From Laetmonice hystrix (lineage: Eukaryota): 64,000 bases of DNA. Each line of letters opens with the position of its first letter. Within the stretch, counting starts at the first letter, position 1. This document shows, in pieces, positions 9,487 to 61,770 of this stretch. The notes beneath the pieces were generated by a model that ran no database searches, was not told where the DNA came from, and saw only the letters and a list, made by a program, of their open reading frames with translations. The DNA lies in NCBI GenBank assembly GCA_965235115.1, contig OZ249436.1:28708001-28772000 (forward strand), written 5' to 3'. The translations under genes and the position numbers were made by a program.

Positions 9487-9926
9487 AACTAGACATGCAG
9501 ATTGCAGGCAATCAGGTATCCCGTTCCTCTATGGATGTATCTAGAAAGGTTCTGTATAGCATGAAAGCAAGTGAGTCATACCAATAATGAGCATAGGGTT
9601 ACAAGAGAAAGACTGTGGGGAAGGTATATTCCAAATCTGGAGAAGATTCTCCAAAAAATGAGGGAGTAGATGCATTTTGACCAGTAATGAGCATAGGGTA
9701 CCGACAGACCACTTAGACACCTGTGTACACAAAAATTTCTTCCAAATAAAAAATATAAAAATGAATACCAAAAAAAAGGGTTGACATAGGTGGGATTTTT
9801 AGGCAATACCCTTGTCATAAAATTACCACACATCTGTTCACACACATATTTTGTAGAGTGTTTCTGTAAATTCATGACCACAGTAATTAAGAACTAAGTA
9901 GAAAATATTCAAAAAAAATAAAAATC

Positions 9927-9999
9927 ATGCCATGGGTAGGATTCGAATCCATGACCCTTGGCAAGAAAGTCCTACACTCTACCACAGCACCATCCGTAC
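9927..9999 (-). ncRNA. tRNA-derived Pol III module (degenerate), copy 1
   Basis: Minus strand GTACGGATGGTGCTGTGGTAGAG...GGATTCGAATCC with A-box/B-box-like motifs followed by T-runs. Stems are imperfect, so not a functional tRNA. Confidence 0.6.
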
Positions 10000-10186
10000 A
10001 CGCAGACAATTAGTAGAGTCCTGCAATAAATGAATGACCATTGCCATTGGCATAGAAGTAAACAACGATGAATTACATCATACCGGGGAGACGCCATACC
10101 AGGCTAAAAAAGGTCCCCTATTGTAAGAGAGCTATTTACCAAGATTACCGGAGGTAGAACATATATAAAAAAATTGAAAAAATCTT

Positions 10187-10259
10187 TTGTCACAGGTGGG
10201 ATTCGAACCCGAGACCTCTGGCATGAAGATCATAGACTCTACCACTAAGCCATCCGGGC
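10187..10259 (-). ncRNA. tRNA-derived (tRNA-Lys-like 5' end) Pol III module, copy 2
   Basis: Minus strand GCCCGGATGGCTTAGTGGTAGAG...GGGTTCGAATCCC then TTTTTT. Consensus A and B boxes; the acceptor stem does not close. Confidence 0.7.
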
Positions 10260-10907
10260 ACACACTCAATTTGTTGAGTGTTGCTGTAAATGAATCACCA
10301 TAGTGGTAGAGAACTGTGTGTTACGTCATACCATCGTTACGTCATAGCAGGCTTATAAAGGACGCCTAGTGGAAGAGAATTATGCCATTATCATTAGATA
10401 TCAACGAAATTCCACGAACTTCCTCATTACATGCAAAATAGACAAAATTCAAAGTCACGTGACTCAGCGATATGACGTCATATTTTAAAAAAAACTGCCA
10501 TCAATCGATCCGCCCCACTATGACGAAGCTATAAATCAAATTTGGAGAAGATTCTGTAAAAAATGAAGGAGTAGATAGATTTTGACTGTTTTCTATGGCT
10601 TGACCTGTATGTCAGAAAGGTCAAAGGTCAAAGGTCAAATGTATGTGGTAAATGATAAAGGTACAAGTCCTAAGTGAGATGACATGAATAACTTTTGTCT
10701 ATCTCTGACTGGAAGTGTACCACATGATCTCAAAGTTGCCGCACATAATACGTCATAACATGACGTCATGACGTCATATGACATATTCCATCATATGTTG
10801 AGGTCTCCATGTCATGATGTATCTAGCCTGAAAGTTTCATCCAGATATCTTGAAAACTGAGGGAGATATTGACCCGACCTTAACTACAACAATAATAATA
10901 ATAATAA

Positions 10908-12741
10908 CTAGAGCGATGGGTTGCTGGGCAACACCAAATCCCATTTCCTGTATCATGGGAGGGCAAGGACAAAAGCAGGTGACATTTAAGAAAAAACATC
11001 TAAACTTAATTCCTATGCATGTTTAATAGTACCTATGTGCTTATCATCCATCGTTTCCAAGATACAAAATCTATATATTGGCGGGACATAGATTTGACCT
11101 TTCAAGGTCACTGTATTGAAATAAAGATGGCGCCGAATGAAAGGCCATATATGACTTCCTATCCATGATTAATAGTAATCATGGACCTAGCTTGCACGGT
11201 TTCCAAGATACAGAGCTCTGAATATTGGCAGGTCACCAATTTGACCTTTCAAGGTCACTCCAGAGAAAAAAAGATGGCGCCAACTGAAAGCCCATATATG
11301 ACTTCCTATATATGATTAACAGTAACCACGGGCCTAACATGCACGGTTTCCAAGATACAGAGCTCTGAATATTGGCAGGTCACCAATTTGACCTTTCAAG
11401 GTCACTCCAGAGAAAAAAAGATGGCGCTAACTGAAAGCCCATATATGACTTCCTATATATGATTAACAGTAACCACGGGCCTAACATGCACGGTTTCCAA
11501 GATACAGAGCTCTGAATATTGGCAGGTCACCAATTTGACCTTTCAAGGTCACTCCAGAGAAATAAAAATGGCGCCAAATGAAAGGCCATATATGACTTCC
11601 TATCCATGTTTAATAGTAACTATTGGCCTATTGTGCATGGTTTCCAAGATACAGAGCTTTGAATATTGGCAGGTCACGGATTTGACCTTTCAAGGTCACT
11701 CCAGAGAAATAAAAATGGCGCCAAATGAATTGCCATATATATCTTCCTATCTATGTTTATTAGTAACTATGGGCCTATTATGCACGGTTTCAAAGATACG
11801 GAGCATTGAATATATGTAGGTCATGGATTTGATCTTTCAAGGTCACTGTAGCGAAGTACAAATGGCGCCAAATGAAATGCCATATATGACTTCCTATCTA
11901 TGTTTAATAGTAACTATGGGCCTATTGTGCACGGTTTCAAAGATACAGAGCATTGAATATATGTAGGTCATGGATTTGACCTTTCAAGGTCACTGTAGCG
12001 AAGTACAAATGGCGCCAAATGAAAGGCCAAATATGACTTCCTATCCTTGATTAATAGCAACTATTGGCTTATTTTGCATTGTTTTCAAGTTACAGGCGAT
12101 TTCCATATATTGCAACTAATTTTGCCAAAGGTCAAAGGTCACAGGGTCAATTCTGAAAAAAAAAATCATTGAAACATGTTTTATGTATGACAGGCTAACA
12201 AACCTGTCTAAAATATGCTTAGATATTGCTTAGATATTGCATAGATGCAAAATTTTATATTCTCTATGCAAACATACCATATTCACATGTTTAAAGTCAC
12301 GTGACAGGATGAAACTAGGTCAAATCGAAAAATCCAGCCAAACTGTTAAGCACCCTCCTATCAGGAGCCTCTGTGCCCAATTTGGTGAAATTTTATTGAA
12401 AATTGAGGGAGAAGATACGTTTTAACCGTTTTCCTAACTCTGACCTAATTTCGACTAAGGGCAAAGGTCACAGGTCAACTTTACCTAGAAAATTATTAGT
12501 GGACTTAATGTTCATTAGATGGCATTAACGCTTCTTGAGTATCTTCTCAGAGCACTATGAAAAACGACTTCAAAATTTAGCTGAAAAACGCCAATATTAC
12601 GTCATAAAACGTCCAAATTACGTCCTATGACGTAATGCATCTGGGTGCCAGTTGTCCTTGCCTAGGTGAACCTTCTGTCCAAGTTTCATTCAGATACCTT
12701 AAAAACTGAGCGAACGGCAAGCCTTGTCTTACTACAGGAAG
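10908..12741 (-). mobile_element. Family B HINE-like body 1 (CTAG end present, no adjacent hairpin module)
   Basis: CTAGAGCGATGGGTTGCTGGGCAACACCAAATCCCATTTCC start; seven 147-bp monomer palindromes (11094-11976); ends ACTACAGGAAG(AAT)n. Confidence 0.85.
11050..12100. repeat. Internal 147-bp tandem repeat of family B (example array)
   Basis: TTGACCTTTCAAGGTCA recurs at 11094, 11241, 11388, 11535...; 49-aa periodicity in ORFs. Every B body has such an array. Confidence 0.97.
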
Positions 12742-12752
12742 AATAATAATAA

Positions 12753-14581
12753 CTAGAGCGATGGGTTGCTGGGCAACACCAAATCCCATTTCCTGTATCA
12801 TGGGAGGGCAAGGACAAAAGCAGGTGACATTTAAGAAAAAACATCTAAACTTAATTCCTATGCATGTTTAATAGTACCTATGTGCTTATCATCCATCGTT
12901 TCCAAGATACAAAATCTATATATTGGCGGGACATAGATTTGACCTTTCAAGGTCACTGTATTGAAATAAAGATGGCGCCGAATGAAAGGCCATATATGAC
13001 TTCCTATCCATGATTAATAGTAATCATGGACCTAGCTTGCACGGTTTCCAAGATACAGAGCTCTGAATATTGGCAGGTCACCAATTTGACCTTTCAAGGT
13101 CACTCCAGAGAAAAAAAGATGGCGCCAACTGAAAGCCCATGTATGACTTCCTATATATGATTAACAGTAACCACGGGCCTAACATGCACGGTTTCCAAGA
13201 TACAGAGCTCTGAATATTGGCAGGTCACCAATTTGACCTTTCAAGGTCACTCCAGAGAAAAAAAGATGGCGCTAACTGAAAGCCCATATATGACTTCCTA
13301 TATATGATTAACAGTAACCACGGGCCTAACATGCACGGTTTCCAAGATACAGAGCTCTGAATATTGGCAGGTCACCAATTTGACCTTTCAAGGTCACTCC
13401 AGAGAAATAAAAATGGCGCCAAATGAAAGGCCATATATGACTTCCTATCCATGTTTAATAGTAACTATTGGCCTATTGTGCATGGTTTCCAAGATACAGA
13501 GCTTTGAATATTGGCAGGTCACGGATTTGACCTTTCAAGGTCACTCCAGAGAAATAAAAATGGCGCCAAATGAATTGCCATATATATCTTCCTATCTATG
13601 TTTATTAGTAACTATGGGCCTATTATGCACGGTTTCAAAGATACGGAGCATTGAATATATGTAGGTCATGGATTTGACCTTTCAAGGTCACTGTAGCGAA
13701 GTACAAATGGCGCCAAATGAAAGGCCATATATGACTTCCTATCTATGTTTAATAGTAACTATGGGCCTATTGTGCACGGTTTCCAAGATACAGAGCATTG
13801 AATATATGTAGGTCATGGATTTGACCTTTCAAGGTCACTGTAGCGAAGTACAAATGGCGCCAAATGAAAGGCCATATATGACTTCCTATCCTTGATTAAT
13901 AGCAACTATTGGCCTATTATGCATTGTTTTCATGTTACAGGTGATCATATATTGGAACTAATTTTGCCAAAGGTCAAAGGTCACAGGGTCAATTATGAAA
14001 AAAATCATTGAAACATGTTTTATGTATGACAGGCTAACACACCTGTCTAAAATAAGCTTAGATATTGCTTAGATATTGCATAGATGCAAAATGTTATATT
14101 CTCTATGCAAACATACCATATTCGCATGTTTAAAGTCACGTGACAGGGTGAAACTAGGTCAAATCGAAAAAATCCAGCCATACTTTTAAGCACCCTCGTA
14201 TCAGGAGCCTCTCTACCCAATTTGGTGAAATTTTATTGAAAAATGAGGGAGAAGATACGTTTTAAGCGTTTTCCTACCTCTGACCTAATTTCGACTAAGG
14301 TCAAAGGTCACAGGTCAACTTCACCTAGAAAATTATTAGTCGACTTAATGTTCATCAGATGGCAGTAACGCTTTTTGCATATCTTCTCAGAGCACCATGA
14401 AAATGGACTTCAAAATTTAGCTGAAAAACGCCAATATTACGTCATAAAACGTCCAAATTACGTCCTATGACGTAATGCATCTGGGTGCCAGGTGTCCTTG
14501 CCTAGGTGAACCTTCTGTCCAAGTTTCATTCAGATACCTTAAAAACTGAGCGAACGGCCAGCCTTGTCTTACTACAGGAAG
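12753..14581 (-). mobile_element. Family B body 2
   Basis: Same termini and internal array as body 1. Confidence 0.85.
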
Positions 14582-14589
14582 AATAATAA

Positions 14590-16126
14590 CTAGAGCGATG
14601 GGTTGCTGGGCAACACCAAATCCCATTTCCTGTATCCTGGGAGGGCAAGGACAAAGGCAGGTGACATTTAAGAAAAAACATCTAAACTTAATTCCTATGC
14701 ATGTTTAATAGTACCTATGTGCTTAACATCCATCGTTTCCAAGATACAAAACTCTGAATATTGGCGGGACATAGATTTGACCTTTCAAGGTCACTGTATT
14801 GAAATAAAGATGGCGCCGAATGAAAGGCCATATATGACTTCCTATCCATGATTAACAGTAACCATGGGCCTAACATGCACGGTTTCCAAGATACAGAGCT
14901 CTGAATATTGGCAGGTGACCAATTTGACCTTTCAAGGCCACTCCAGAGAAATAAAAATGGCGCCAAATGAAAGGCCCTATATGACTTCCTATCCATGTTT
15001 AATAGTAACTATTGGCCTATTGTGCATGGTTTCCAAGATACAGAGCTTTGAATATTGGCAGGTCACGGATTTGACCTTTCAAGGTCACTCCAGAGAAATA
15101 AAAATGGCGCCAAATGAAATGCCATATATGACTTCCTATCTATGTTTATTAGTAACTATGGGCCTATTGTGCACGGTTTCAAAGATACAGAGCATTGAAT
15201 ATATGTAGGTCATGGATTTGACCTTTCAAGGTCACTGTAGTGAAGTACAAATGGCGCCAAATGAAAGGCCATATATGACTTCCTATCCTTGATTAATAGT
15301 AACTGTGGGCCTATTGTGCATGGTTTCCAAGATACAGAGCATTGAATATATGTAGGTCATGGATTTGACCTTTCAAGGTCACTGTAGCGAAGTACAAATG
15401 GCGCCAAATGAAAGGCCATATATGACTTCCTATCCTTGATTAATAGCAACTATTGGCCTATTATGCATTGTTTTCATGTTACAGGCGATTCCATATATTG
15501 CAACTAATTTTGCCAAAGGTCAAAGGTCACAGGGTCAATTATGAAAAAAATCATTGAAACATGTTTTATGTATGACAGGCTAACACACCTGTCTTAAATA
15601 AGCTTAGATATTGCTTAGATATTGCATAGATGCAAAATGTTATATTCTCTATGCAAACATACCATATTCGCATGTTTAAAGTCACGTGACAGGGTGAAAC
15701 TAGGTCAAATCGAAAAATCCAGCCAAACTTTTAAGCAGCCTCCTATCAGGACCCTCTGTGCCCAATTTGGTGAAATTTTATTGAAAATTGAGGGAGAAGA
15801 TACGTTTTAAGCGTTTTCCTACCTCTGACCTAATTTCGACTAAGGGCAAAGGTCACAGGTCAACTTCACCTAGAAAATTATTAGTGGACTTAATGTTCAT
15901 CAGATGGCATTAACGCTTCTTGAGTATCTTCTCAGAGCACTATGAAAAACGACTTCAAAATTTAGCTGAAAAACGCCAATATTACGTCATAAAACGTCCA
16001 AATTACGTCCTATGACGTAATGCATCTGGGTGCCAGGTGTCCTTGCCTAGGTGAACCTTCTGTCCAAGTTTCATTCAGATACCTTAAAAACTGAGCGAAT
16101 GGCCAGCCTTGTCTTACTACAGGAAG
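14590..16126 (-). mobile_element. Family B body 3
   Basis: Same termini and internal array. Confidence 0.85.
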
Positions 16127-16143
16127 AATAATAATAATAATAA

Positions 16144-17522
16144 CTAGAGCGATGGGTTGCTGGGCAACACCAAATCCCATTTCCTGTATCCTGGGAGGGC
16201 AAGGACAAAGGCAGGTGACATTTAAGAAAAAACATCTAAACTTAATTCCTATGCATGTTTAATAGTACCTACGTGCTTAACATCCATCGTTTCCAAGATA
16301 CAAAATCTGAATATTGGCGGGTCATAGATTTGACCTGTATTGAAATAAAGATGGCGCCGAATGAAAGGCCATATATGACTTCCTATACATGATTAATAGT
16401 AATCATGGACCTAGCATGCACGGTTTCCAAGACACACAGCTCTGGATATTGGCAGGTCACCAATTTGACCTTTCAAGGTCACTCCAGAGAAAAAAAGATG
16501 GCGCTAATTGAAAGCCCATATATGACTTCCTATCCATGATTAACAGTAATCATGGACCTAGCATGCACGGTTTCCAAGATACAGAGCTCTGAATATTGGC
16601 AGGTGACCAATTTGACCTTTCAAGGTCACTCCAGAGAAATAAAAATGGCGCCAAATGAAAGGCCATATATGACTTCCTATCCATGTTTAATAGTAACTAT
16701 GGGCCTATTGTGCACGGTTTCAAAGATACAGAGCATTGAATATATGTAGGTCATGGATTTGACCTTTCAAGGTCACTGTAGCGAAGTACAAATGGCGCCA
16801 AATGAAAGGCAATATATGACTTCCTATACTTGATTAATAGCAACTATTGGCTTATTTTGCCTTGTTTTCAAGTTACAGGCGATTCCATATATTGCAACTA
16901 ATTTTGCCAAAGGTCAAAGGTCACAGGGTCAATTCTGAAAAAAAAATAATTGAAACATGTTTTATGTATGACAGGCTAACAAACCTGTCTAAAATATGCT
17001 TAGATATTGCTTAGATATTGCATAGATACAAAATTGTATATTCTCTATGCAAACATAACATATGCACATGTTTAAAGTCACGTGACAGGGTGAAACTAGG
17101 TCAAATCAAAAAATCCAGCCAAACTTTTAAGCACCCTCCTATCAGGAGCCTCTCTGCCCAATTTGGTGAAATTTTATTGAAAATTGAGGGAGAAGATACG
17201 TTTTAAGCGTTTTCCGACCTCTGACCTAATTTCGACTAAGGGCAAAGGTCACAGGTCAACTTCACCTAGAAAATTATTAGTGGACTTAATGTTCATCAGA
17301 TGGCATTAACGCTTCTTGAGTATCTTCTCAGAGCACTATGAAAAACGACTTCAAAATTTAGCTAAAAAACGCCAATATTACGTCATAAAACGTCCAAATT
17401 ACGTCCTATGACGTAATGCATCTGGGTGCCAGGTGTCCTTGCCTAGGTGAACCTTCTGTCCAAGTTTCATTCAGATACCTTAAAAACTGAGCGAATGGCC
17501 AGCCTTGTCTTACTACAGGAAG
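16144..17522 (-). mobile_element. Family B body 4
   Basis: Same termini; small deletion in the first monomer palindrome (~16335). Confidence 0.85.
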
Positions 17523-17530
17523 AATAATAA

Positions 17531-19063
17531 CAAGACACAGAGATCTGAATAGTGGCAGGTCACCAATTTGACCTTTCAATGTCACTCCAGAGAAAAAAAG
17601 ATGGCGCTAATTGAAAGCCCATATATGACTTCCTATCCATGTTTAATAGTAACCATGGGCCTAACATGCGCGGTTTCCAAGATACAGAGCTCTGAATATT
17701 GGCAGGTGACCAATTTGACCTTTCAAGGTCACTCCAGAGAAATAAAAATGGCGCCAAATGAAAGGCCATATATGACTTCCTATCCATGTTTAATAGTAAC
17801 TATTGGCCTATTGTGCATGGTTTCCAAGATACAGAGCTTTGAATATTGGCAGGTCACGGATTTGACCTTTCAAGGTCACTCCAGAGAAATAAAAATGGCG
17901 CCAAATGAAATGCCATATATGACTTCCTATCTATGTTTATTAGTAACTATGGGCCTATTGTGCACGGTTTCAAAGATACAGAGCATTGAATATATGTAGG
18001 TCATGGATTTGACCTTTCAAGGTCACTGTAGCGAAGTACTAATGGCGCCAAATGAAAGGCCATATATGACTTCCTATCTATGTTTAATAGTAACTATGGG
18101 CCTATTGTGCACGGTTTCCAAGATACAGAGCATTGAATATATGTAGGTCATGGATTTGACCTTTCAAGGTCACTGTAGCGAAGTACAAATGGCGCCAAAT
18201 GAAAGGCCATATATGACTTCCTATCCTTGATTAATAGTAACTATGGGCCTATTGTGCATGGTTTCCAAGATACAGAGCATTGAATATATGTAGGTCATGG
18301 ATTTGACCTTTCAAGGTCACTGTAGCGAAGTACAAATGGCGCCAAATGAAAGGCCATATATGACTTCCTATCCTTGATTAATAGCAACTATTGGCCTATT
18401 ATGCATTGTTTTCATGTTACAGGCGATTCCATATATTGCAACTAATTTTGCCAAAGGTCAAAGGTCACAGGGTCAATTATGAAAAAAATCATTGAAACAT
18501 GTTTTATGTATGACAGGCTAACACACCTGTCTTAAAATAGCTTAGATATTGCTTAGATATTGCATAGATGCAAAATGTTATATTCTCTATGCAAACATAC
18601 CATATTCGCATGTTTAAAGTCACGTGACAGGGTGAAACTAGGTCAAGTCGAAAAATCCAGCCAAACTTTTAAGCACCCTCCTATCAGGACCCTCTGTGCC
18701 CAATTTGGTGAAATTTTATTGAAAATTGAGGGAGAAGATACGTTTTAAGCGTTTTCCTACCTCTGACCTAATTTCGACTAAGGGCAAAGGTCACAGGTCA
18801 ACTTCACCTAGAAAATTATTAGTGAACTTAATGTTCATCAGATGGCATTAACGCTTCTTGAGTATCTTTTCAGAGCACTATGAAAAACGACTTCAAAATT
18901 TAGCTGAAAAACGCCAATATTACGTCATAAAACGTCCAAATTACGTCCTATGACGTAATGCATCTGGGTGCCAGGTGTGCTTGCCTAGGTGAAGCTTCTG
19001 TCCAAGTTTCATTCAGATACCTTAAAAACTGAGCGAACGGCCAGCCTTGTCTTACTACAGGAA

Positions 19064-19064
<1 letters not shown>
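17531..19064 (-). mobile_element. Family B body 5, truncated on the CTAG side
   Basis: (AAT)nAA joins directly to internal CAAGACACAGAG. Confidence 0.85.
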
Positions 19065-19102
<38 letters not shown>

Positions 19103-19103
<1 letters not shown>

Positions 19104-20561
19104 TAGAGCGATGGGTTGCTGGGCAACACCAAATCCCATTTCCTGTATCCTGGGAGGGCAAGGACAAAGGCAGGTGACATTTAAGAAAAAACATCTAAAC
19201 TTAATTCCTATGCATGTTTAATAGTACCTATGTGCTTAACATCCATCGTTTCCAAGATACAAAACTCTGAATATTGGCGGGACATAGATTTGACCTTTCA
19301 AGGTCACTGTATTGAAATAAAGATGGCGCCGAATGAAAGGCCATATATGACTTCCTATCCATGATTAACAGTAACCATGGGCCTAACATGCACGGTTTCC
19401 AAGATACAGAGCTCTGAATATTGGCAGGTGACCAATTTGACCTTTCAAGGTCACTCCAGAGAAATAAAAATGGCGCCAAATGAAATGCCATATATGACTT
19501 ACTATCTATGTTTATTAGTAACTATGGGCCTATTGTGCACGGTTTCAAAGATACAGAGCATTGAATATATGTAGGTCATGGATTTGACCTTTCAAGGTCA
19601 CTGTAGCGAAGTACAAATGGCGCCAAATGAAAGGCCATATATGACTTCCTATCTATGTTTAATAGTAACTATGGGCCTATTGTGCACGGTTTCAAAGATA
19701 CAGAGCATTGAATATATGTAGGTCATGGATTTGACCTTTCAAGGTCACTGTAGCGAAGTACAAATGGCGCCAAATGAAAGGCCATATATGACTTCCTATC
19801 CTTGATTAATAGCAACTATTGGCCTATTATGCATTGTTTTCATGTTACAGGCGATTCCATATATTGCAACTAATTTTGCCAAAGGTCAAAGGTCACAGGG
19901 TCAATTATGAAAAAAATCATTGAAACATGTTTTATGTATGACAGGCTAACACACCTGTCTTAAATAAGCTTAGATATTGCTTAGATATTGCATAGATGCA
20001 AAATGTTATATTCTCTATGCAAACATACCATATTCGCATGTTTAAAGTCACGTGACAGGGTGAAACTAGGTCAAATCGAAAAATCCAGCCAAACTTTTAA
20101 GCACCCTCCTATCAGGACCCTCTGTGCCCAATTTGGTGAAATTTTATTGAAAATTGAGGGAGAAGATACGTTTTAAGCGTTTTCCTACCTCTGACCTAAT
20201 TTCGACTAAGGGCAAAGGTCACAGGTCAACTTCACCTAGAAAATTATTAGTGAACTTAATGTTCATCAGATGGCATTAACGCTTCTTGAGTATCTTTTCA
20301 GAGCACTATGAAAAACGACTTCAAAATTTAGCTGAAAAACGCCAATATTACGTCATAAAACGTCCAAATTACGTCCTATGACGTAATGCATCTGGGTGCC
20401 AGGTGTCCTTGCCTAGGTGAACCTTCTGTCCAAGTTTCATTCAGATACCTTAAAAACTGAGCGAATGGCCAGCCTTGTCTTACTACAGGAAGAATAATAA
20501 TAATAGTGTACACGAAACCATACAACAACAAGATCCCATTTCCACAGAGTGGAAATGGGAT
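19103..20561 (-). mobile_element. Family B complete element (body 6 + hairpin module)
   Basis: CTAG end, 4 monomer palindromes, (AAT)n, then GTGTACACGAAACC...ATCCCATTTCCAC-AGA-GTGGAAATGGGAT. Confidence 0.88.
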
Positions 20562-20628
20562 AATAATAATAATAGTGTACACGAAACCATACAACAACAA
20601 AATCCCATTTCCACAGAGTGGAAATGGG

Positions 20629-20661
<33 letters not shown>

Positions 20662-20717
20662 GTGTACACGAAACCATACAACAACAAAATCCCATTTCCA
20701 CAGAGTGGAAATGGGAT
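20506..20717 (-). repeat. Stack of three 56-bp B terminal hairpin modules separated by (AAT)n
   Basis: Modules at 20506, 20575, 20662. Confidence 0.92.
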
Positions 20718-20722
20718 AATAA

Positions 20723-22549: not shown

Positions 22550-22563
22550 AATAATAATAATAA

Positions 22564-24247: not shown

Positions 24248-24258
24248 AATAATAATAA

Positions 24259-25733: not shown

Positions 25734-25747
25734 AATAATAATAATAA

Positions 25748-28311: not shown

Positions 28312-28349
<38 letters not shown>

Positions 28350-28405
28350 GTGTACACGAAACCATACAACAACAAAATCCCATTTCCACAGAGTGGAAAT
28401 GGGAT
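25748..28405 (-). mobile_element. Family B complete element (body 10, expanded array of ~12 monomers, + hairpin module at 28350)
   Basis: Both ends present; longest internal array. Confidence 0.88.
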
Positions 28406-28413
28406 AATAATAA

Positions 28414-40981: not shown

Positions 40982-40998
40982 AATAATAATAATAATAA

Positions 40999-42672: not shown

Positions 42673-42689
42673 AATAATAATAATAATAA

Positions 42690-44811: not shown

Positions 44812-44828
44812 AATAATAATAATAATAA

Positions 44829-46218: not shown

Positions 46219-46226
46219 AATAATAA

Positions 46227-48111: not shown

Positions 48112-48122
48112 AATAATAATAA

Positions 48123-49806: not shown

Positions 49807-49823
49807 AATAATAATAATAATAA

Positions 49824-51630
49824 ATATATTGGCGGGACATAGATTTGCCCTTTCAAGGTCACTGTATTGAAATAAAGATGGCGCCGAATGAAAGGCCATA
49901 TATGACTTCCTATCCATGATTAATAGTAATCATGGACCTAGCTTGCACGGTTTCCAAGATACAGAGTTCTGAATATTGGCAGGTCACCAATTTGACCTTT
50001 CAAGGTCACTCCAGAGAAAAAAAGATGGCGCCAACTGAAAGCCCATATATGACTTCCTATATATGATTAACAGTAACCACGGGCCTAACATGCACGGTTT
50101 CCAAGATACAGAGCTCTGAATATTGGCAGGTCACCAATTTGACCTTTCAAGGTCACTCCAGAGAAATAAAAATGGCGCCAAATGAAAGGCCATATATGAC
50201 TTCCTATCCATGTTTAATAGTAACTATTGGCCTATCGTGCATGGTTTCCAAGATACAGAGCTCTGAATATTGGCAGGTCACCAATTTGACCTTTCAAGGT
50301 CACTCCAGAGAAAAAAAGATGGCGCTAACTGAAAGCCCATATATGACTTCCTATATATGATTAACAGTAGCCACGGGCCTAACATGCACGGTTTCCAAGA
50401 TACAGAGCTCTGAATATTGGCAGGTCACCAATTTGACCTTTCAAGGTCACTCCAGAGAAATAAAAATGGCGCCAAATGAAAGGCCATATATGACTTCCTA
50501 TCCATGTTTAATAGTAACTATTGGCCTATTGTGCATGGTTTCCAAGATACAGAGCTTTGAATATTGGCAGGTCACGGATTTGACCTTTCAAGGTCACTCC
50601 AGAGAAATAAAAATGGCGCCAAATGAAATGCCATATATGACTTCCTATCTATGTTTAATAGTAACTATGGGCCTATTGTGCATGGTTTCAAAGATACAGA
50701 GCATTGAATATATGTAGGTCATGGATTTGACCTTTCAAGGTCACTGTAGCGAAGTACAAATGGCGCCAAATGAAAGGCCAAATATGACTTCCTATCCTTG
50801 ATTAATAGCAACTATTGGCTTATTTTGCATTGTTTTCAAGTTACAGGCGATTTCCATATATTGCAACTAATTTTGCCAAAGGTCAAAGGTCACAGGGTCA
50901 ATTCTGAAAAAAAAAATCATTGAAACATGTTTTATGTATGACAGGCTAACAAACCTGTCTAAAATATGCTTAGATATTGCTTAGATATTGCATAGATGCA
51001 AAATTTTATATTCTCTATGCAAACATACCATATTCACATGTTTAAAGTCACGTGACAGGATGAAACTAGGTCAAATCGAAAAATCCAGCCAAACTTTTAA
51101 GCACCCTCCTATCAGGAGCCTCTGTGCCCAATTTGGTGAAATTTTATTGAAAATTGAGGGAGAAGATACGTTTTAACCGTTTTCCTAACTCTGACCTAAT
51201 TTCGACTAAGGGCAAAGGTCACAGGTCAACTTTACCTAGAAAATTATTAGTGGACTTAATGTTCATTAGATGGCATTAACGCTTCTTGAGTATCTTCTCA
51301 GAGCACTATGAAAAACGACTTCAAAATTTAGCTGAAAAACGCCAATATTACGTCATAAAACGTCCAAATTACGTCCTATGACGTAATGCATCTGGGTGCC
51401 AGGTGTCCTTGCCTAGGTGAACCTTCTGTCCAAGTTTCATTCAGATACCTTAAAAACTGAGCGAACGGCAAGCCTTGTCTTACTACAGGAAGAATAATAA
51501 TAATAATAGTGTACACGAAACCATACAACAACAAAATCCCATTTCCACAGAGTGGAAATGGGATAATAATAATAGTGTACACGAAACCATACAACAACAA
51601 AATCCCATTTCCACAGAGTGGAAATGGGAT
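49824..51630 (-). mobile_element. Family B body 22 (truncated on the CTAG side) + two hairpin modules (51509, 51575)
   Basis: (AAT)nAA joins ATATATTGGCGGG. Confidence 0.85.
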
Positions 51631-51635
51631 AATAA

Positions 51636-53464
51636 CTAGAGCGATGGGTTGCTGGGCAACACCAAATCCCATTTCCTGTATCCTGGGAGGGCAAGGACAA
51701 AGGCAGGTGACATTTAAGAAAAAACATCTAAACTTAATTCCTATGCATGTTTAATAGTACCTATGTGCTTAACATCCATCGTTTCCAAGATACAAAATCT
51801 GAATATTGGCGGGTCATAGATTTGACCTTTCAAGGTCACTGTAATCAAATAAAGATGGCGCCGAATGAAAGGCCATATATGACTTCCTATCCATGATTAA
51901 TAGTAATCATGGACCTAGCATGCACGGTTTCCAAGACACAGGGATCTGAATAGTGGCAGGTCACCAATTTGACCTTTCAAGGTCACTCCAGAGAAAAAAA
52001 GATGGCGCCAATTGAAAGCTCATATATGACTTCCTATCCATGATTTACAGTAACCATGGGCCTAACATGCACGGTTTCCAAGATACAGAGCTATGAATAT
52101 TGGCAGGTCATGAATTTGACCTTCCAAGGTCACTACAGAGAAAGAAAAATGGCGCCAAATGAAATACCATATATGACTTCCTATCCATGGTTAATAGCAA
52201 CTATGGGTCTATCGTGCACGGTTCCCAAGATACAGAGCTTTGAATATTGGGGAGCATGGATTTGACCTTTCAAGGTCATGGTAGGGAAGTAAAGATGGCG
52301 CCGAATGAAAGCCCATATATGACTTCCTATCCATGATTAACAGTAATCATGGACCCAGCATGCACTGTTTCCAAGATACAGAGCTCTGAATATTGGCAGG
52401 TGACCAATTTGACCTTTCAAGGTCACTCCAGAGAAATAAAAATGGCGTCAAATGAAAGGCCATATATGACTTCCTATCCATGTTTAATAGTAACTATTGG
52501 CCTATTGTGCATGGTTTCCAAGATACAGAGCTTTGAATATTGGCAGGTCACGGATTTGACCTTTCAAGGTCACTGTAGCGAAGTACAAATTGCGCCAAAT
52601 GAAAGGCCATATATGACTTCCTATCTATGTTTAATAGTAACTATGGGGCTATTGTGCACGGTTTCCAAGATACAGAGCATTGAAAATATGTAGGTCATGG
52701 ATTTAACCTTTCAAGGTCACTGTAGCGAAGTACAAATGGCGCCAAATGAAAGGCCATATATGACTTCCTATCCTTCATTAATAGCAACTATTGGCCTATT
52801 ATGCATTGTTTTCATGTTACAGGCGATTCCATATATTGCAACTAATTTTGCCAAAGGTCAAAGGTCACAGGGTCAATTATGAAAAAAATCATTGAAACAT
52901 GTTTTATGTATGACAGGCTAACACACCTGTCTAAAATAAGCTTAGATATTGCTTAGATATTGCATAGATGCAAAATGTTATATTCTCTATGCAAACATAC
53001 CATATTCGCATGTTTAAAGTCACGTGACAGGGTGAAACTAGGTCAAATCGAAAAATCCAGCCAAACTTTTAAGCACCCTCCTATCAGGACCCTCTGTGCC
53101 CAATTTGGTGAAATTTTATTGAAAATTGAGGGAGAAGATACGTTTTAAGCGTTTTCCTACCTCTGACCTAATTTCGACTAAGGGCAAAGGTCACAGGTCA
53201 ACTTCACCTAGAAAATTTTTAGGGGACTTAATGTTCATCAGATGGCATTAACGCTTCTTGAGTATCTTCTCAGAGCACTATGAAAAACGACTTCAAAATT
53301 TAGCTGAAAAACGCCAATATTACGTCATAAAACGTCCAAATTACGTCCTATGACGTAATGCATCTGGGTGCCAGGTGTCCTTGCCTAGGTGAATCTTCTG
53401 TCCAAGTTTCATTCAGATACCTTAAAAACTGAGCGAATGGGCAGCCTTGTTTTACTACAGGAAG
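51636..53464 (-). mobile_element. Family B body 23
   Basis: Same termini; includes divergent monomers at ~52130-52380. Confidence 0.85.
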
Positions 53465-53478
53465 AATAATAATAATAA

Positions 53479-54870
53479 CTAGAGCGATGGGTTGCTGGGC
53501 AACACCAAATCCCATTTCCTGTATCCTGGGAGGGCAAGGACAAAGGCAGGTGACATTTAAGAAAAAACATCTAAACTTAATTCCTATGCATGTTTAATAG
53601 TACCTATGTGCTTAACATCCATCGTTTCCAAGATACAAAACTCTGAATATTGGCGGGACATAGATTTGACCTTTCAAGGTCACTGTATTGAAATAAAAAT
53701 GGCGTCAGATGAAAGGCCATATAGGACTTCCTATGCATGATTCAAAGTAACTATGGCCCTATTGTGCACAGTGTCCAAGATACAGAGCTCTGAATATTGC
53801 CAGGTCATTGATTTGACCTTTCAAGGTCACTCTAGGGAAATAAGAATGGCGGCAAATGAAAGCCCATATATGACTTCCTATATATGATTAACAGTAACCA
53901 CGGCCTAACATGCACGGTTTCCAAGATACAGAGCTCTGAATATTGGCAGGTCACCAATTTGACCTTTCAAGGTCACTCCAGAGAAATAGAAATGGCGCCA
54001 AATGAAAGGCCATATATGACTTCCTATCCATGTTTAATAGTAACTATTGGCCTATTGTGCATGGTTTCCAAGATACAGAGCATTGAATATATGTAGGTCA
54101 TGGATTTGACCTTTCAAGGTCACTGTAGCGAAGTACAAATGGCGTCAAATGAAAGGCCATATATGACTTCCTATCCTTGATTAATGGCAACTATTGGCTT
54201 ATTTTGCATTGTTTTCAAGTTACAGGCGATTCCATATATTGCAACTAATTTTGCCAAAGGTCAAAGTTCACAGGGTCAATTCTGAAAAAAAAAATAATTG
54301 AAACATGTTTTATGTATGACAGGCTAGCAAACCTGCCTAAAATATGCTTAGATATTGCTTAGATATTGCATAGATGCAAAATTTTATATTCTCTATGCAA
54401 ACATACCATATTCGCATGTTTAAAGTCACGTGACAGAGTGAAACTAGGTCAAATCAAAAAATCCAGCCAAACTTTTAAGCACCCTCCTATCAGGAGCCTC
54501 TGTGCCCAATTTGGTGAAATTTTATTGAAAATTGAGGGAGAAGATACGTTTTAAGCGTTTTCCTACCTCTGACCTAATTTCGACTAAGGGCAAAGGTCAC
54601 AGGTCAAGTTCACCTAGAAAATTATTAGTGGACTTAATGTTCATCAGATGGCATTAACGCTTTTTGAGTATCTTCTCAGAGCACTATAAAAAACGACTTC
54701 AAAATTTAGCTGAAAAACGACAATATTACGTCATAAAACGTCCAAATTACGTCCTATGACGTAATGCATCTGGGTGCCAGGTGTCCTTGCCTAGGTGAAC
54801 CTTCTGTCCAAGTTTCATTCAGATACCTTAAAAACTGAGCGAATGGGCGGGCTTGTTTTACTACAGGAAG
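53479..54870 (-). mobile_element. Family B body 24
   Basis: Same termini; divergent monomers at ~53690-53880. Confidence 0.85.
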
Positions 54871-54896
54871 AATAATAATAATAATAATAATAATAA

Positions 54897-56560
54897 CTAG
54901 AGCGATGGGTTGCTGGGCAACACCAAATCCCATTTCCGGTATATCCTGGGAGGGCAAGGACAAAGGCAGGTGACATTTAAGAAAAAACATCTAAACTTAA
55001 TTCCTATGCATGTTTAATAGTACCTTTCCAAGATACAAAATCTGAATATTCGCGGAACATAGATTTGACCTTTCAAGGTCACTGTATTGAAATAAAGATG
55101 GCGCCGAATGAAAGGCCATATATGACTTCCTATCCATGATTAACAGTGATCATGGACCTAGCTTGCACGGTTTCCAAGATACAGAGCTCTGAATGTTGGC
55201 AGGTCACCAATTTGACCTTTCAAGGTCACTCCAGAGAAAAAAAGATGGCGCCAACTGAAAGCCCATATATGACTTCCTATATATGATTAACAGTAACCAC
55301 GGGCCTAACATGCACGGTTTCCAAGATACAGAGCTCTGAATATTGGCAGGTCACCAATTTGACCTTTCAAGGTCACTCCAGAGAAAAAAAGATGGCGCTA
55401 ACTGAAAGCCCATATATGACTTCCTATATATAATTAACAGTAACCACGGGCCTAACATGCACGGTTTCCAAGATACAGAGCTCTGAATATTGGCAGGTCA
55501 CCAATTTGACCTTTCAAGGTCACTCCAGAGAAATAAAAATGGCGCCAAATGAAAGGCCATATATGACTTCCTATCCATGTTTAATAGTAACTATTGGCCT
55601 ATTGTGCATGGTTTCCAAGATACAGAGCTTTGAATATTGGCAGGTCACGGATTTGACCTTTCAAGGTCACTCCAGAGAAATAAAAATGGCGCCAAATGAA
55701 TTGCCATATATATCTTCCTATCTATGTTTAATAGTAACTATGGGCCTATTGTGCACGGTTTCCAAGATACAGAGCATTGAATATATGTAGGTCATGGATT
55801 TGACCTTTCAAGGTCACTGTAGCGAAGTACAAATGGCGCCAAATGAAAGGCCATATATGACTTCCTATCCTTGATTAATAGCAACTATTGGCCTATTATG
55901 CATTGTTTTTATGTTACAGGTGATCATATATTGGAACTAATTTTGCCAAAGGTCAAAGGTCACAGGGTCAATTATGAAAAAAATCATTGAAACATGTTTT
56001 ATGTATGACAGGCTAACACACCTGTCTAAAATAAGCTTAGATATTGCTTAGATATTGCATAGATGCAAAATGTTATATTCTCTATGCAAACATACCATAT
56101 TCGCATGTTTAAAGTCACGTGACAGGGTGAAACTAGGTCAAATCGAAAAAATCCAGCCATACTTTTAAGCACCCTCGTATCAGGAGCCTCTCTACCCAAT
56201 TTGGTGAAATTTTATTGAAAAATGAGGGAGAAGATACGTTTTAAGCGTTTTCCTACCTCTGACCTAATTTCGACTAAGGTCAAAGGTCACAGGTCAACTT
56301 CACCTAGAAAATTATTAGTCGACTTAATGTTCATCAGATGGCAGTAACGCTTTTTGCATATCTTCTCAGAGCACCATGAAAATGGACTTCAAAATTTAGC
56401 TGAAAAACGCCAATATTACGTCATAAAACGTCCAAATTACGTCCTATGACGTAATGCATCTGGGTGCCAGGTGTCCTTGCCTAGGTGAACCTTCTGTCCA
56501 AGTTTCATTCAGATACCTTAAAAACTGAGCGAACGGCCAGCCTTGTTTTACTACAGGAAG
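54897..56560 (-). mobile_element. Family B body 25
   Basis: Same termini; ~20-bp deletion near 55025. Confidence 0.85.
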
Positions 56561-56586
56561 AATAATAATAATAATAATAATAATAA

Positions 56587-58268
56587 CTAGAGCGATGGGT
56601 TGCTGGGCAACACCAAATCCCATTTCCTGTATCATGGGAGGGCAAGGACAAAAGCAGGTGACATTTAAGAAAAAACATCTAAACTTAATTCCTATGCATG
56701 TTTAATAGTACCTATGTGCTTATCATCCATCGTTTCCAAGATACAAAATCTATATATTGGCGGGACATAGATTTGACCTTTCAAGGTCACTGTATTGAAA
56801 TAAAGATGGCGCCGAATGAAAGGCCATATATGACTTCCTATCCATGATTAATAGTAATCATGGACCTAGCTTGCACGGTTTCCAAGATACAGAGCTCTGA
56901 ATATTGGCAGGTCACCAATTTGACCTTTCAAGGTCACTCCAGAGAAAAAAAGATGGCGCCAACTGAAAGCCCATATATGACTTCCTATATATGATTAACA
57001 GTAACCACGGGCCTAACATGCACGGTTTCCAAGATACAGAGCTCTGAATATTGGCAGGTCACCAATTTGACCTTTCAAGGTCGCTCCAGAGAAATAAAAA
57101 TGGCGCCAAATGAAAGGCCATATATGACTTCCTATCCATGTTTTATAGTAACTATTGGCCTATTGTGCATGGTTTCCAAGATACAGAGCTTTGAATATTG
57201 GCAGGTCACGGATTTGACCTTTCAAGGTCACTCCAGAGAAATAAAAATGGCGCCAAATGAATTGCCATATATATCTTCCTATCTATGTTTATTAGTAACT
57301 ATAGGCCTATTATGCACGGTTTCAAAGATACGGAGCATTGAATATATGTAGGTCATGGATTTGACCTTTCAAGGTCACTGTAGCGAAGTACAAATGGCGC
57401 CAAATGAAAGGCCATATATGACTTCCTATCTATGTTTAATAGTAACTATGGGCCTATTGTGCACGGTTTCCAAGATACAGAGCATTGAATATATGTAGGT
57501 TATGGATTTGACCTTTCAAGGTCACTGTAGCGAAGTACAAATGGCGCCAAATGAAAGGCCATATATGACTTCCTATCCTTGATTAATAGCAACTATTGGC
57601 CTATTATGCATTGTTTTCATGTTACAGGTGATCATATATTGGAACTAATTTTGCCAAAGGTCAAAGGTCACAGGGTCAATTATGAAAAAAATCATTGAAA
57701 CATGTTTTATGTATGACAGGCTAACACACCTGTCTAAAATAAGCTTAGATATTGCTTAGATATTGCATAGATGCAAAATGTTATATTCTCTATGCAAACA
57801 TACCATATTCGCATGTTTAAAGTCACGTGACAGGGTGAAACTAGGTCAAATCGAAAAAATCCAGCCATACTTTTAAGCACCCTCGTATCAGGAGCCTCTC
57901 TACCCAATTTGGTGAAATTTTATTGAAAAATGAGGGAGAAGATACGTTTTAAGCGTTTTCCTACCTCTGACCTAATTTCGACTAAGGTCAAAGGTCACAG
58001 GTCAACTTCACCTAGAAAATTATTAGTCGACTTAATGTCCATCAGATGGCAGTAACGCTTTTTGCATATCTTCTCAGAGCACCATGAAAATGGACTTCAA
58101 AATTTAGCTGAAAAACGCCAATATTACGTCATAAAACGTCCAAATTACGTCCTATGACGTAATGCATCTGGGTGCCAGGTGTCCTTGCCTAGGTGAACCT
58201 TCTGTCCAAGTTTCATTCAGATACCTTAAAAACTGAGCGAACGGCCAGCCTTGTCTTACTACAGGAAG
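56587..58268 (-). mobile_element. Family B body 26
   Basis: Same termini and internal array. Confidence 0.85.
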
Positions 58269-58288
58269 AATAATAATAATAATAATAA

Positions 58289-60266
58289 CTAGAGCGATGG
58301 GTTGCTGGGCAACACCAAATCCCATTTCCTGTATCATGGGAGGGCAAGGACAAAAGCAGGTGACATTTAAGAAAAAACATCTAAACTTAATTCCTATGCA
58401 TGTTTAATAGTACCTATGTGCTTATCATCCATCGTTTCCAAGATACAAAATCTATATATTGGCGGGACATAGATTTGACCTTTCAAGGTCACTGTATTGA
58501 AATAAAGATGGCGCCGAATGAAAGGCCATATATGACTTCCTATCCATGATTAATAGTAATCATGGACCTAGCTTGCATGGTTTCCAAGATACAGAGCTCT
58601 GAATATTGGCAGGTCACCAATTTGACCTTTCAAGGTCACTCCAGAGAAAAAAAGATGGCGCCAACTGAAAGCCCATATATGACTTCCTATATATGATTAA
58701 CAGTAACCACGGGCCTAACATGCACGGTTTCCAAGATACAAAGCTCTGAATATTGGCAGGTCACCAATTTGACCTTTCAAGGTCACTCCAGAGAAAAAAA
58801 GATGGCGCTAACTGAAAGCCCATATATGACTTCCTATATATGATTAACAGTAACCACGGGCCTAACATGCACGGTTACCAAGATACAGAGCTCTGAATAT
58901 TGGCAGGTCACCAATTTGACCTTTCAAGGTCACTCCAGAGAAATAAAAATGGCGCCAAATGAAAGGCCATATATGACTTCCTATCCATGTTTAATAGTAA
59001 CTATTGGCCTATTGTGCATGGTTTCCAAGATACAGAGCTTTGAATATTGGCAGGTCACGGATTTGACCTTTCAAGGTTTACAGAGAAATAAAAATGGCGC
59101 CAAATGAATTGCCATATATATCTTCATATCTATGTTTATTAGTAACTATGGGCCTATTATGCACGGTTTCAAAGATACGGAGCATTGAATATATGTAGGT
59201 CATGGATTTGACCTTTCAAGGTCACTGTAGCGAAGTACAAATGGCGCCAAATGAAAGGCCATATATGACTTCCTATCCTTGATTAATAGTAACTATGGGC
59301 CTATTGTGCATGGTTTCCAAGATACAGAGCATTGAATATATGTAGGTCATGGATTTGACCTTTCAAGGTCACTGTAGCGAAGTACAAATGGCGCCAAATG
59401 AAAGGCCATATATGACTTCCTATCCTTGATTAATAGCAACTATTGGCCTATGATGCATTGTTTTCATGTTACAGGCGATTCCATATATTGCAACTAATTT
59501 TGCCAAAGGTCAAAGGTCACAGGGTCAATTATGAAAAAAATCATTGAAACATGTTTTATGTATGGCAGGCTAACACACCTGTCTTAAATAAGCTTAGATA
59601 TTGCTTAGATATTGCATAGATGCAAAATGTTATATTCTCTATGCAAACATACCATATTCGCATGTTTAAAGTCACGTGACAGGGTGAAACTAGGTCAAAT
59701 CGAAAAATCCAGCCAAACTTTTAAGCACCCTCCTATCAGGACCCTCTGTGCCCAATTTGGTGAAATTTTATTGAAAATTGAGGGAGAAGATACGTTTTAA
59801 GCGTTTTCCTACCTCTGACCTAATTTCGACTAAGGGCAAAGGTCACAGGTCAACTTCACCTAGAAAATTATTAGTGGACTTAATGTTCATCAGATGGCAT
59901 TAACGCTTTTTGAGTATCTTCTCAGAGCACTATAAAAAACGACTTCAAACTTTAGCTGAAAAACGCCAATATTACGTCATAAAACGTCCAAATTACGTCC
60001 TATGACGTAATGCATCTGCGTGCCAGGTGTCCTTGCCTAGGTGAACCTTCTGTCCAAGTTTCATTCAGATACCTTAAAAACTGAGCGAACGGCCAGCCTT
60101 GTCTTACTACAGGAAGAATAATAATAATAATAATAATAGTGTACACGAAACCATACAACAACAAGATCCCATTTCCACAGAGTGGAAATGGGATAATAAT
60201 AATAATAATAGTGTACACGAAACCATACAACAACAAAATCCCATTTCCACAGAGTGGAAATGGGAT
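58289..60266 (-). mobile_element. Family B complete element (body 27) with two hairpin modules (60139, 60211)
   Basis: Both ends present plus one extra module. Confidence 0.88.
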
Positions 60267-60274
60267 AATAATAA

Positions 60275-61477
60275 CCAGAGAAATAAAAATGGCGCCAAAT
60301 GAAAGGCCATATATGACTTCCTATCCATGTTTAATAGTAACTATTGGCCTATTGTGCATGGTTTCCAAGATACAGAGCTTTGAATATTGGCAGGTCACGG
60401 ATTTGACCTTTAAAGGTCACTCCAGAGAAATAAAAATGGCGCCAAATGAAATGCCATATATGACTTCCTATCTATGTTTATTAGTAACTATGGGCCTATT
60501 GTGCACGGTTTCAAAGATACAGAACATTGAATATATGTAGGTCATGGATTTGACCTTTCAAGGTCACTGTAGCGAAGTACAAATGGCGCCAAATGAAAGG
60601 CCATATATGACTTCCTATCTATGTTTAATAGTAACTATGGGCCTATTGTGCACGGTTTCCAAGATACCGAGCATTGAATATATGTAGGTCATGGATTTGA
60701 CCTTTCAAGGTCACTGTAGCGAAGTACAAATGGCGCCAAATGAAAGGCCATAATATGGCCATATAATATATTATATGACTTCCTATCCTTGATTAATAGC
60801 AACTATTGGCCTATTATGCATTGTTTTCATGTTACAGGTGATCATATATTGGAACTAATTTTGCCAAAGGTCAAAGGTCACAGGGTCAATTATGAAAAAA
60901 ATCATTGAAACATGTTTTATGTATGACAGGCTAACACACCTGTCTAAAATAAGCTTAGATATTGCTTAGATATTGCATAGATGCAAAATGTTATATTCTC
61001 TATGCAAACATACCATATTCGCATGTTTAAAGTCACGTGACAGGGTGAAACTAGGTCAAATCGAAAAAATCCAGCCATACTTTTAAGCACCCTCGTATCA
61101 GGAGCCTCTCTACCCAATTTGGTGAAATTTTATTGAAAAATGAGGGAGAAGATACGTTTTAAGCGTTTTCCTACCTCTGACCTAATTTCGACTAAGGTCA
61201 AAGGTCACAGGTCAACTTCACCTAGAAAATTATTAGTCGACTTAATGTTCATCAGATGGCAGTAACGCTTTTTGCATATCTTCTCAGAGCACCATGAAAA
61301 TGGACTTCAAAATTTAGCTGAAAAACGCCAATATTACGTCATAAAACGTCCTAATTACGTCCTACGACGTAATGCATCTGGGTGCCAGGTGTCCTTGCCT
61401 AGGTGAACCTTCTGTCCAAGTTTCATTCAGATACCTTAAAAACTGAGCGAACGGCCAGCCTTGTTTTACTACAGGAA

Positions 61478-61515
<38 letters not shown>

Positions 61516-61703
61516 GTGTACACGAAACCATACAACAACAAAATCCCATTTCCACAGAGTGGAAATGGGATAATAATAATAGTGTACACGAAACCATACA
61601 ACAACAAAATCCCATTTCCACAGAGTGGAAATGGGATAATAATAATAGTGTACACGAAACCATACAACAACAAAATCCCATTTCCACAGAGTGGAAATGG
61701 GAT
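60275..61703 (-). mobile_element. Family B body 28 (truncated on the CTAG side) + three hairpin modules (61516, 61582, 61648)
   Basis: Same truncation junction as body 12. Confidence 0.85.
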
Positions 61704-61713
61704 AATAATAATA

Positions 61714-61770
61714 GTGTACACCCAAACCGTACAATTTCAGGATCCCGTTCCTCAGTCGGAGGAACGGGAT
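61714..61770 (-). mobile_element. Displaced terminal hairpin module of element A
   Basis: GTGTACACCCAAACCGTACAATTTCAGG-ATCCCGTTCCTC-AGTCG-GAGGAACGGGAT; the stem equals the motif at 9518-9529. Confidence 0.9.

Follow-up and report, generated by a model that had tools for sequence, protein, structure and literature searches.

A 52-kb stack of small rolling-circle transposons nested in the ATT repeats of earlier copies in Laetmonice hystrix

How does a 52-kb block of repeats arise in which every unit points the same way and no foreign DNA separates the units? The question is raised by a 64,000-nucleotide stretch of the genome of Laetmonice hystrix (C1:28,708,001-28,772,000, in a 627-Mb genome of 35 contigs), hereafter called the window. 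The block is composed of elements of three families, A, B and C, and is a genuine stack of small rolling-circle transposons, nested in the ATT repeats of earlier copies or of their relatives. We consider it highly probable that these elements form part of a clan of non-autonomous Helentrons, whose copies nested one by one in ATT tracts borne by the elements themselves. An initial annotation of this DNA had described a single 52-kb cluster of this kind; the phenomenon instead spans a genome-wide clan of families.

Architecture of the nest

Each element consists of a body and, beyond an AAT tract, a short hairpin-bearing 5' module. The initial annotation placed the whole set between the body and the module of element A, and both the coordinates and the layout are correct. 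The main parts are as follows.

9489..10890, minus strand: body of element A, the outermost host, with the CTAG 3' end, a short stem and the subterminal repeat at 9489-9540
10891..10907 (17 nt, body side) and 61704-61713 (10 nt, module side), no strand assigned: remainders of A's (AAT)n tract
10908..61703, minus strand: nested block of 28 B bodies, 18 B modules, element C and AAT tracts
28414..32662, minus strand: element C, with two fused bodies at 28414-32594 (the second from ~30753), a 13-nt tract and its own 5' module at 32608-32662
61714..61770, minus strand: 5' module of element A, which closes the nest; 12-bp hairpin containing the subterminal repeat, z -5.0

Of the 50,823 bases from 10891 to 61713, 50,813 belong to bodies, modules or tracts, and the remainder is the final 10-nt tract. 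All 28 B bodies (1.0-2.6 kb in length, 22 with the CTAG end and six truncated) are wholly covered by plus-strand matches to a single reference body; with the full parse, this bears out the uniform orientation and the absence of foreign DNA that had been described. Besides B, the block holds a single C body stretch with its module, and AAT tracts are the sole joints. The bodies generally begin after AAT tracts, as had been claimed, except for three B bodies preceded by just AATAA and the second of the two fused C bodies, which lacks its first 30 bases and is preceded by one AAT. The joint (AAT)4AA-CTAG occurs 460 times genome-wide, as compared to once for the reversed control, and is not a product of chance.

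Insertion versus duplication

Did the copies enter singly, or were they multiplied in place? Two duplicated segments on C6 share seven bodies with 0 mismatches over 10.5 kb, and the sole differences between them are complete elements gained at AAT tracts. One segment contains two extra blocks. The first is a single complete B, module included; the second, 8.8 kb long, is a nest in which three B bodies and five B modules occur together with an element of another family. The tract lengths change from 17 nt in the empty state to 17+2 and 8+11 nt in the filled state, which is empty plus 2 both times. A deletion origin of the 8+11 split would be hard to sustain, because the overlap would be just 2 nt. 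Some insertions thus postdate the mismatch-free duplication, and the nesting is recent. The nearest relative of the single B added on C6 is the window body at 51636, with 4 mismatches in 1,830 positions.

The same arithmetic holds at the site of A, for which the surrounding DNA provides an empty copy.

4713..9488, resuming at 61771-64000, no strand assigned: host of A, tandem units of 72-bp repeats and a unique spacer
8006..8022, no strand assigned: empty copy of A's site in the neighbouring host unit, with five A's; in the filled site, two A's lie on the left and five on the right

These comparisons place insertion at TT. The filled site equals the empty site plus two T's at three sites, which fits one T at each element end and a 2-bp TT duplication alike; the same ambiguity is recognised in PMC4067079 (here and below, each publication is cited for the portion of its text that was available). 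A twin of A, located 4 kb past the window, has the same flank and A start, with no difference in the 401 bases compared, but its insert is a 1.6-kb element from a different family, and that element has lost its own hairpin. The host itself is organised in higher-order tandem units, in which 72-bp repeats with a strong G skew are combined with a 600-bp spacer, and one unit was duplicated along with A.

The relationships among the B bodies were examined with one mis-parsed C19 body and the seven bodies of the duplicated C6 segment set aside from the locus-distance, allele and junction counts. Over 600-nt tails in the window, neighbours differ at 17.6 sites and all pairs at 17.1 (p 0.66); adjacent bodies are no closer than random pairs, and tandem duplication is therefore rejected. 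Within-locus and between-locus distances are likewise similar (17.3 vs 18.1, p 0.22, 58 of 66 bodies kept). The nearest relative of the 28 window bodies lies outside the window for 11 and inside for 12, with five ties, and the bodies at 14590 and 46227 each differ by one mismatch from copies on C2. The near-identical body pairs differ in the preceding tract in 14 of 14 cases, and several also differ in the type of neighbour. The sources of B are thus many sub-families across the whole genome. Local tandem duplication of one founder, which the initial annotation had named as a challenge to nesting, is accordingly not upheld. A classical satellite or macrosatellite was rejected as well, as neighbouring units are not homogenised by local duplication, and so were composite moves by 3' read-through, as, the C6 duplication aside, none of 33 adjacent pairs is found a second time.

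All six truncated bodies begin right after (AAT)nAA, five of them unambiguously (p 0.004 if independent), and two have a common breakpoint. Such starts suggest early termination, of which they are the expected outcome.

Target choice across the genome

Where do B copies land? The 3' end of B was found 261 times (up to one mismatch), and at least 258 ends (exact) are preceded by ATAA, which a plain TT target would be expected to place before ~10% of ends, given the base composition. This near-absolute tract preference runs against another challenge that had been named, dispersed copies with no microsatellite preference. B ends follow the tract of a B body in 132 cases and a B module in 66, giving 198 of 261 (76%) within their own family, a share inflated by copies that segmental duplication multiplied. 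B modules constitute 217 of the 3,978 clan modules (5.5%; degenerate pattern, with 0 for the reversed control), and behind 24 of the 217 the sequence continues with AA and then a base that is not T: 22 of these modules abut the CTAG of another element, one a truncated body and one a tract with an extra A.

At all 13 loci examined (26 B loci being present among the matches listed), the outermost B lies in the tract of a related element. In total, 1,914 tracts of at least four AAT do not end in the junction phase and seem dispersed, and by eye 4 of the first 68 listed adjoin a module. For clan tract shares of 0.5 to 0.69, the chance of 13 out of 13 is 0.0001 to 0.008. B therefore lands almost only in clan-carried ATT tracts, although ordinary AAT microsatellites abound. 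Hosts with B-like modules make up 9 of the 13, as compared to ~29 of the first 100 modules listed (p 0.003); the count was made by eye on a single part of C1 and serves as a lead only.

Where in the tract does insertion occur? Between two modules, the tract is most commonly 7 nt and in no case 4 nt long, and insertions therefore hug the host module. Among the first 100 of the 132 B-after-B junctions listed, no tract before the B end is shorter than 8 nt, and the lengths peak at 8 nt (33) and 17 nt (32). The tracts of other families are as long as those of B, at 17-28 nt. Stacks of five to six 5' modules of mixed families occur at C1:23,780,660-23,781,030 and two other loci, and nesting therefore extends clan-wide, beyond B. 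In the B-like modules at C1:23,780,759 and C1:24,149,196, the hairpin loop has the opposite orientation to that of every window copy, which suggests template switching inside the palindrome.

Family A behaves differently from B. It has 204 exact 3' ends genome-wide, and by eye the first 100 listed are preceded by AT+AA in ~42 cases, by the end of a clan body in ~12 and by ordinary DNA in ~46. Ordinary TT sites thus receive about half of the A insertions, and family A seeds nests. A is the host at four B loci, where it encloses about 8, 12, 36 and 52 kb, and at three loci besides the window it closes around B blocks. Some clan elements bear an (ACT)n run ahead of the AAT tract (for example C2:38,496,388-38,496,301). 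At times A enters the very first TT behind a body end of this (ACT)n type; B was not seen to do so among the matches listed.

Anatomy and class of the elements

By their sequence features, A, B and C are assigned to the non-coding Helentron-type elements (HINE, DINE-1-like), in minus-strand orientation. Read on the minus strand, the families share one plan: a 5' T, a hairpin module of 55-60 nt, the (ATT)n tract, the body, a repeat of the subterminal word, a putative short stem and CTAG-T. The subterminal word is present at both ends and has 12 nt in A (ATCCCGTTCCTC, in the body at 9489-10890 and the module at 61714-61770), 13 nt in B and 14 nt in C, in agreement with the 11-15 bp given for HINE/Helentron elements (HLE2). 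The 5' hairpins of A, B and C have 12-13 bp within the first ~29 bases of the module (z -4.8 to -5.8, 0 of 200 shuffles). Also as in HLE2, the 5' inverted repeat pairs with the subterminal repeat; as in HINEs, (ATT)n follows the 5' module in all three families and the target is TT. Central tandem repeats are present in B (147 bp, 2-12 copies per body) and C (312/445 bp), and none was called in A. The stems near the 3' end are short and visible but weak when compared with shuffles, with z scores of -2.1 in B, -0.6 in C and 0.1 in A. No coding capacity was found in the window, where only three stop-to-stop frames of 151-182 codons occur, all spanning module stacks.

The HINE-like anatomy had thus been recognised properly in the initial annotation, which called the module a terminal hairpin. 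The module is the 5' end and not the 3' hairpin, because the anatomy matches the DINE-1/HINE plan of PMC4067079 and PMC7492417. In the Helraiser assay (PMC4778049), the 5' end starts transposition and is essential, and the 3' end is dispensable.

Other classes were rejected. A canonical Helitron (HLE1) by definition begins with TC at its 5' end, inserts between A and T and lacks terminal repeats (PMC11417382); here the 5' end reads TATCCC, the target is TT and subterminal repeats are present. A 3-bp TAA duplication of the PIF/Harbinger kind does not fit, as many A ends lack the T (by eye) and the ends are Helentron-like. Stretches in the A body that resemble, by eye and reversed, a tRNA or the head of a short interspersed element (~9930-10000 and ~10190-10260) gave no ARAGORN call, and a comparison of 9400-12800 with Rfam yielded no match even at an E cut-off of 1.

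Which proteins could move these elements? Helitron_like_N matches number 125 genome-wide, of which 106 exceed 120 bits. A relative of A at C2:38.48 Mb, with 84% identity to the last 124 nt of A in a comparison restricted to the 3' end, encodes Rep (Helitron_like_N), PIF1 helicase and endonuclease (Exo_endo_phos), and its upstream part is split into several frames. A 2,628-codon Rep-helicase frame at C4:30.505-30.513 Mb was set aside, as it could not be linked to clan ends and the adjacent B copy is cut off by other DNA. Most of the 106 strong matches have open frames of 1,600-3,600 codons with no interruption, and many are located in repeat-rich parts of C7, C8, C12 and C19. At C5:29.45-29.53 Mb, four matches of equal score, each with a 2,855-codon frame and ~28 kb apart, form a tandem array of an ORF-bearing element. 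The Helentron population of this genome is unusually active.

Proposed mechanism

Seeding and nesting: As the comparisons of filled and empty sites show, a copy of A first entered an ordinary TT site of the host tandem repeat. Copies of B and C then entered singly and always in one direction, landing between the two T's of an ATT unit that an earlier copy carried in its tract. An insertion splits one tract and supplies another, and a growing cluster therefore offers more targets. As the copies land in the tracts of relatives, they pile up within one another rather than spread genome-wide. Local hopping is unnecessary for nest growth; Helraiser showed none (PMC4778049).

Truncation and module loss: In line with Helitron biochemistry, the Rep-helicase would begin its run at the 5' end and may halt prematurely, leaving the six 3'-truncated bodies. 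Tandem 5' modules, each a hairpin between direct repeats, may collapse or duplicate via slippage and recombination, which could produce the ten bodies that lack modules while the modules of other families survive.

Targeting: The nuclease may prefer T^TATTAT (TTAT or TAGT, then TATTAT), which would imitate the joined ends (CTAGT^TATCCC) expected of a circular intermediate; joined-end circles have been reported for Helraiser (PMC4778049) and FoHeli1 (PMC5148889). The complex would also home on resident 5' modules by binding to or pairing with the module and tract, with its own family preferred. We put forward this two-layer targeting, a joined-end-mimic site combined with homing on resident 5' modules, tentatively and as a proposal that falls just short of probable. 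The self-perpetuating (ATT)n landing pad of the initial annotation is retained in its TT insertion into the clan's own tracts and its repeated nesting, with the refinement that targeting is not accounted for by the tract alone.

Missing modules and evidence against nesting

If nesting were undisturbed, each body would be closed by its module. The other parts of the nested block are as follows.

17531..19064, minus strand: 3'-truncated B body, starting directly after (AAT)nAA
starts 24259, 34363, 38378, 49824 and 60275, minus strand: five further 3'-truncated B bodies, each directly after (AAT)nAA
20506..20717, minus strand: three stacked B 5' modules, alleles G, A, A
28350..28405, minus strand: lone B 5' module
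34230..34354, minus strand: two stacked B modules
39467..39585, minus strand: two stacked B modules
47930..48111, minus strand: three stacked B modules, allele G throughout
51509..51630, minus strand: two stacked B modules
60139..60266, minus strand: two stacked B modules
61516..61703, minus strand: three stacked B modules before A's module, with a 13-bp hairpin in each, z -5.8

Modules are indeed stacked behind bodies like closing brackets, as had been proposed, but the brackets are unbalanced and pure nesting is insufficient. The running excess of B bodies over B modules in the window has a minimum of 1, a peak of 14 and a final value of 10. The rule that modules never outnumber preceding bodies consequently holds in the window and not in general, as the C6 block has three B bodies and five B modules.

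What weighs against nesting one by one? Ten of the 28 window B bodies lack a module, which insertion alone cannot yield, and the imbalance is genome-wide, with 261 B ends vs 217 B modules. The last-in-first-out order, followed through a G/A allele of the module, was not significant (11/18, 14/18 and 15/19; p 0.42, 0.17 and 0.15); the allele classifier was right for 12-18 of 20 in leave-one-out, and bracket matching is not used as support. The tail of a body and the head of the next are weakly linked (rho 0.175, p 0.028, one of four tests), and the B body tails are mosaic, which points to recombination-type copying. The search for autonomous partners of B or C found none, and the lack of one for B counts here. 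To these points are added the inflated own-family share, the bimodal tract length of 8 and 17 nt before B ends, which is not accounted for, and the distribution of copies as the sole basis of the homing step.

Some of these observations have a local explanation. At two small loci, the absent module is that of the outermost B, and the host of another family retains its own, which suggests a collapse of tandem near-identical modules. The surplus modules on C6 suggest either duplication or composites with multiple 5' ends, such as those proposed for FoHeli. Recombination between copies probably helped shape the array, and the exact nesting depth is unreadable from it.

Alternative explanations

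Could recombination have done the whole work? Homologous recombination or gene conversion between clusters, free of transposase, may be supposed to have given most of the B-in-B growth after a few founders, a break at a tract being repaired by copying units. This would explain the body-only units, the mosaic tails, the weak tail-to-next-head linkage, the identity across contigs and the own-family preference. However, it is improbable in the face of the differing tracts before all 14 near-identical pairs, the absence of recurring adjacent pairs outside the C6 duplication, the 2-nt overlap available for the 17 to 8+11 split, the common AA phase of the truncated starts and the entry of B into non-homologous hosts at 13 loci. 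Local tandem amplification of one or two founders, by unequal crossing-over or a rolling-circle concatemer, draws on the segmental duplication that did happen in the C6 cluster, on equal tracts within some stacks (7,7; 10,10,10), which suggest local module duplication, and on the resemblance of the 22 module-AA-CTAG joints to circle junctions. No such joint is present in the window, though, and three elsewhere join two different families; moreover, the whole window bodies are all non-identical, their neighbours are unlike and many of their nearest relatives lie elsewhere, which makes this explanation very improbable. Even less can be said for the mis-assembly of a collapsed or shuffled repeat, which we regard as extremely improbable: each body is distinct, the flanks match the empty site and the differently filled twin, and cross-family brackets close correctly at several loci. 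In its favour, the contigs from four sequencing runs at 8900-11000 are short, with none spanning the junctions; of the five runs listed, four derive from one sample, which may be the source, and the fifth has a small share. One contig of the small-share run leads from the end of an A body directly into an A module, and probably represents another A copy.

Targeting by sequence only is a rival to homing and not to nesting. The nuclease would need ~10-11 nt of perfect ATT, clan tracts would exceed all others in length, purity or accessibility, and rich-get-richer growth, segmental duplication and selection against other insertions would account for the own-family excess. Consistent with this, no B-after-B tract in the sample above is shorter than 8 nt, a clan tract share of up to 0.69 makes 13 out of 13 a matter of just p 0.008, and other repeat-targeting elements are thought to depend on endonuclease specificity (PMC3812793). 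On the other hand, B tracts are ~5.5% of the clan's, with equal lengths elsewhere, yet hold 76% of B ends, and none of the 13 B founders lies in an ordinary microsatellite. As sequence alone explains neither the absence from ordinary microsatellites nor the own-family excess, we judge it unlikely and favour docking on resident 5' modules or pairing with them.

Relation to known systems

Each ingredient of the nest has a precedent, and microsatellite-targeting and self-inserting Helitrons have been published separately. The elements resemble HINE/DINE-1 (HLE2; Thomas et al. 2014, PMC4067079; oyster Cg_HINE, PMC7492417) in their subterminal repeats, 5' inverted repeat with a microsatellite behind it, central tandem repeats (140-180 bp in those elements), TT target, extra terminal T's and lack of a clear target duplication. 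They differ in that the published elements target T-rich DNA or TT generally, with the microsatellite (often GTCY) as a passenger, whereas here it contains TT and is a near-obligate, cross-family target. MINE-1, a Helitron-like element of moths, also targets a microsatellite, (GAAA)n, but one of the host, and an element-borne target or nests are not mentioned in the available text of the review (PMC3812793). The Paramecium Helitrons of telomeric repeats (bioRxiv 10.1101/2025.11.06.686955) share the insertion into a simple repeat, the absolute orientation bias, a proposed nested insertion and a target resembling the element 3' end; in contrast, they form a separate clade confined to chromosome ends, and the repeats are stated not to be part of the elements. 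In Fusarium FoHeli, of the Helitron2 type (PMC5148889), stacks of several short 5' termini ahead of a single 3' end are ascribed to self-insertion near the 5' end, but the cases are few, and the available text mentions no microsatellite landing pad and no 50-100 kb blocks.

Outside this group, multimers of miniature inverted-repeat elements (MITEs) in rice and maize (PMC5172404) show a self-insertion preference, but by cut-and-paste and with ~10% in multimers, as compared to at least 76% here. MuTAnT and Micron (PMC4486113), which target TA microsatellites, likewise use the microsatellite as a safe haven and move by cut-and-paste. Truncated plant Helitrons form long tandem arrays by rolling-circle amplification, in which 5' and 3' ends are likewise not equally numerous, but there many 5' ends per 3' end derive from one template, whereas here many sub-families are involved and 5' ends are in deficit (review PMC12628747, which also covers shuffled Helitron loci in oyster). 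Our literature search found no description of a HINE clan with a carried microsatellite as a near-obligate, cross-family target; supplements, subscription papers and Repbase notes lay outside the search, so that absence from print is not shown. An animal rolling-circle transposase that homes in trans on the 5' ends of its own family, with (ATT)n as the joined-end mimic and a clan divided into settlers (A) and obligate nesters (B), is possible, though we remain rather doubtful of it.

Implications

What does the nest tell us about Helentrons? It bears on their target choice beyond "TT", as one family, in a genome with 106 strong Rep matches, is ~99% faithful to a repeat carried by its clan. Target choice thereby becomes testable, by comparing the tract with the tract plus 5' module, own with other families and A with B. 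Ordered insertion also provides a route to satellite-like blocks of 10-100 kb, which repeat annotation would misread as tandem duplication. The window contains, apart from the nest, a foldback-type element of ~2.6 kb (1219-3791), with inverted arms 92-97% complementary over ~1 kb and a 41-bp tandem repeat in both orientations.

The strategy is that of a safe haven in which the element brings its own haven. If the homing reading is true, the clan would have a self-made safe haven and blocks of macrosatellite size built by insertion and not by duplication, with family B living only inside its relatives.

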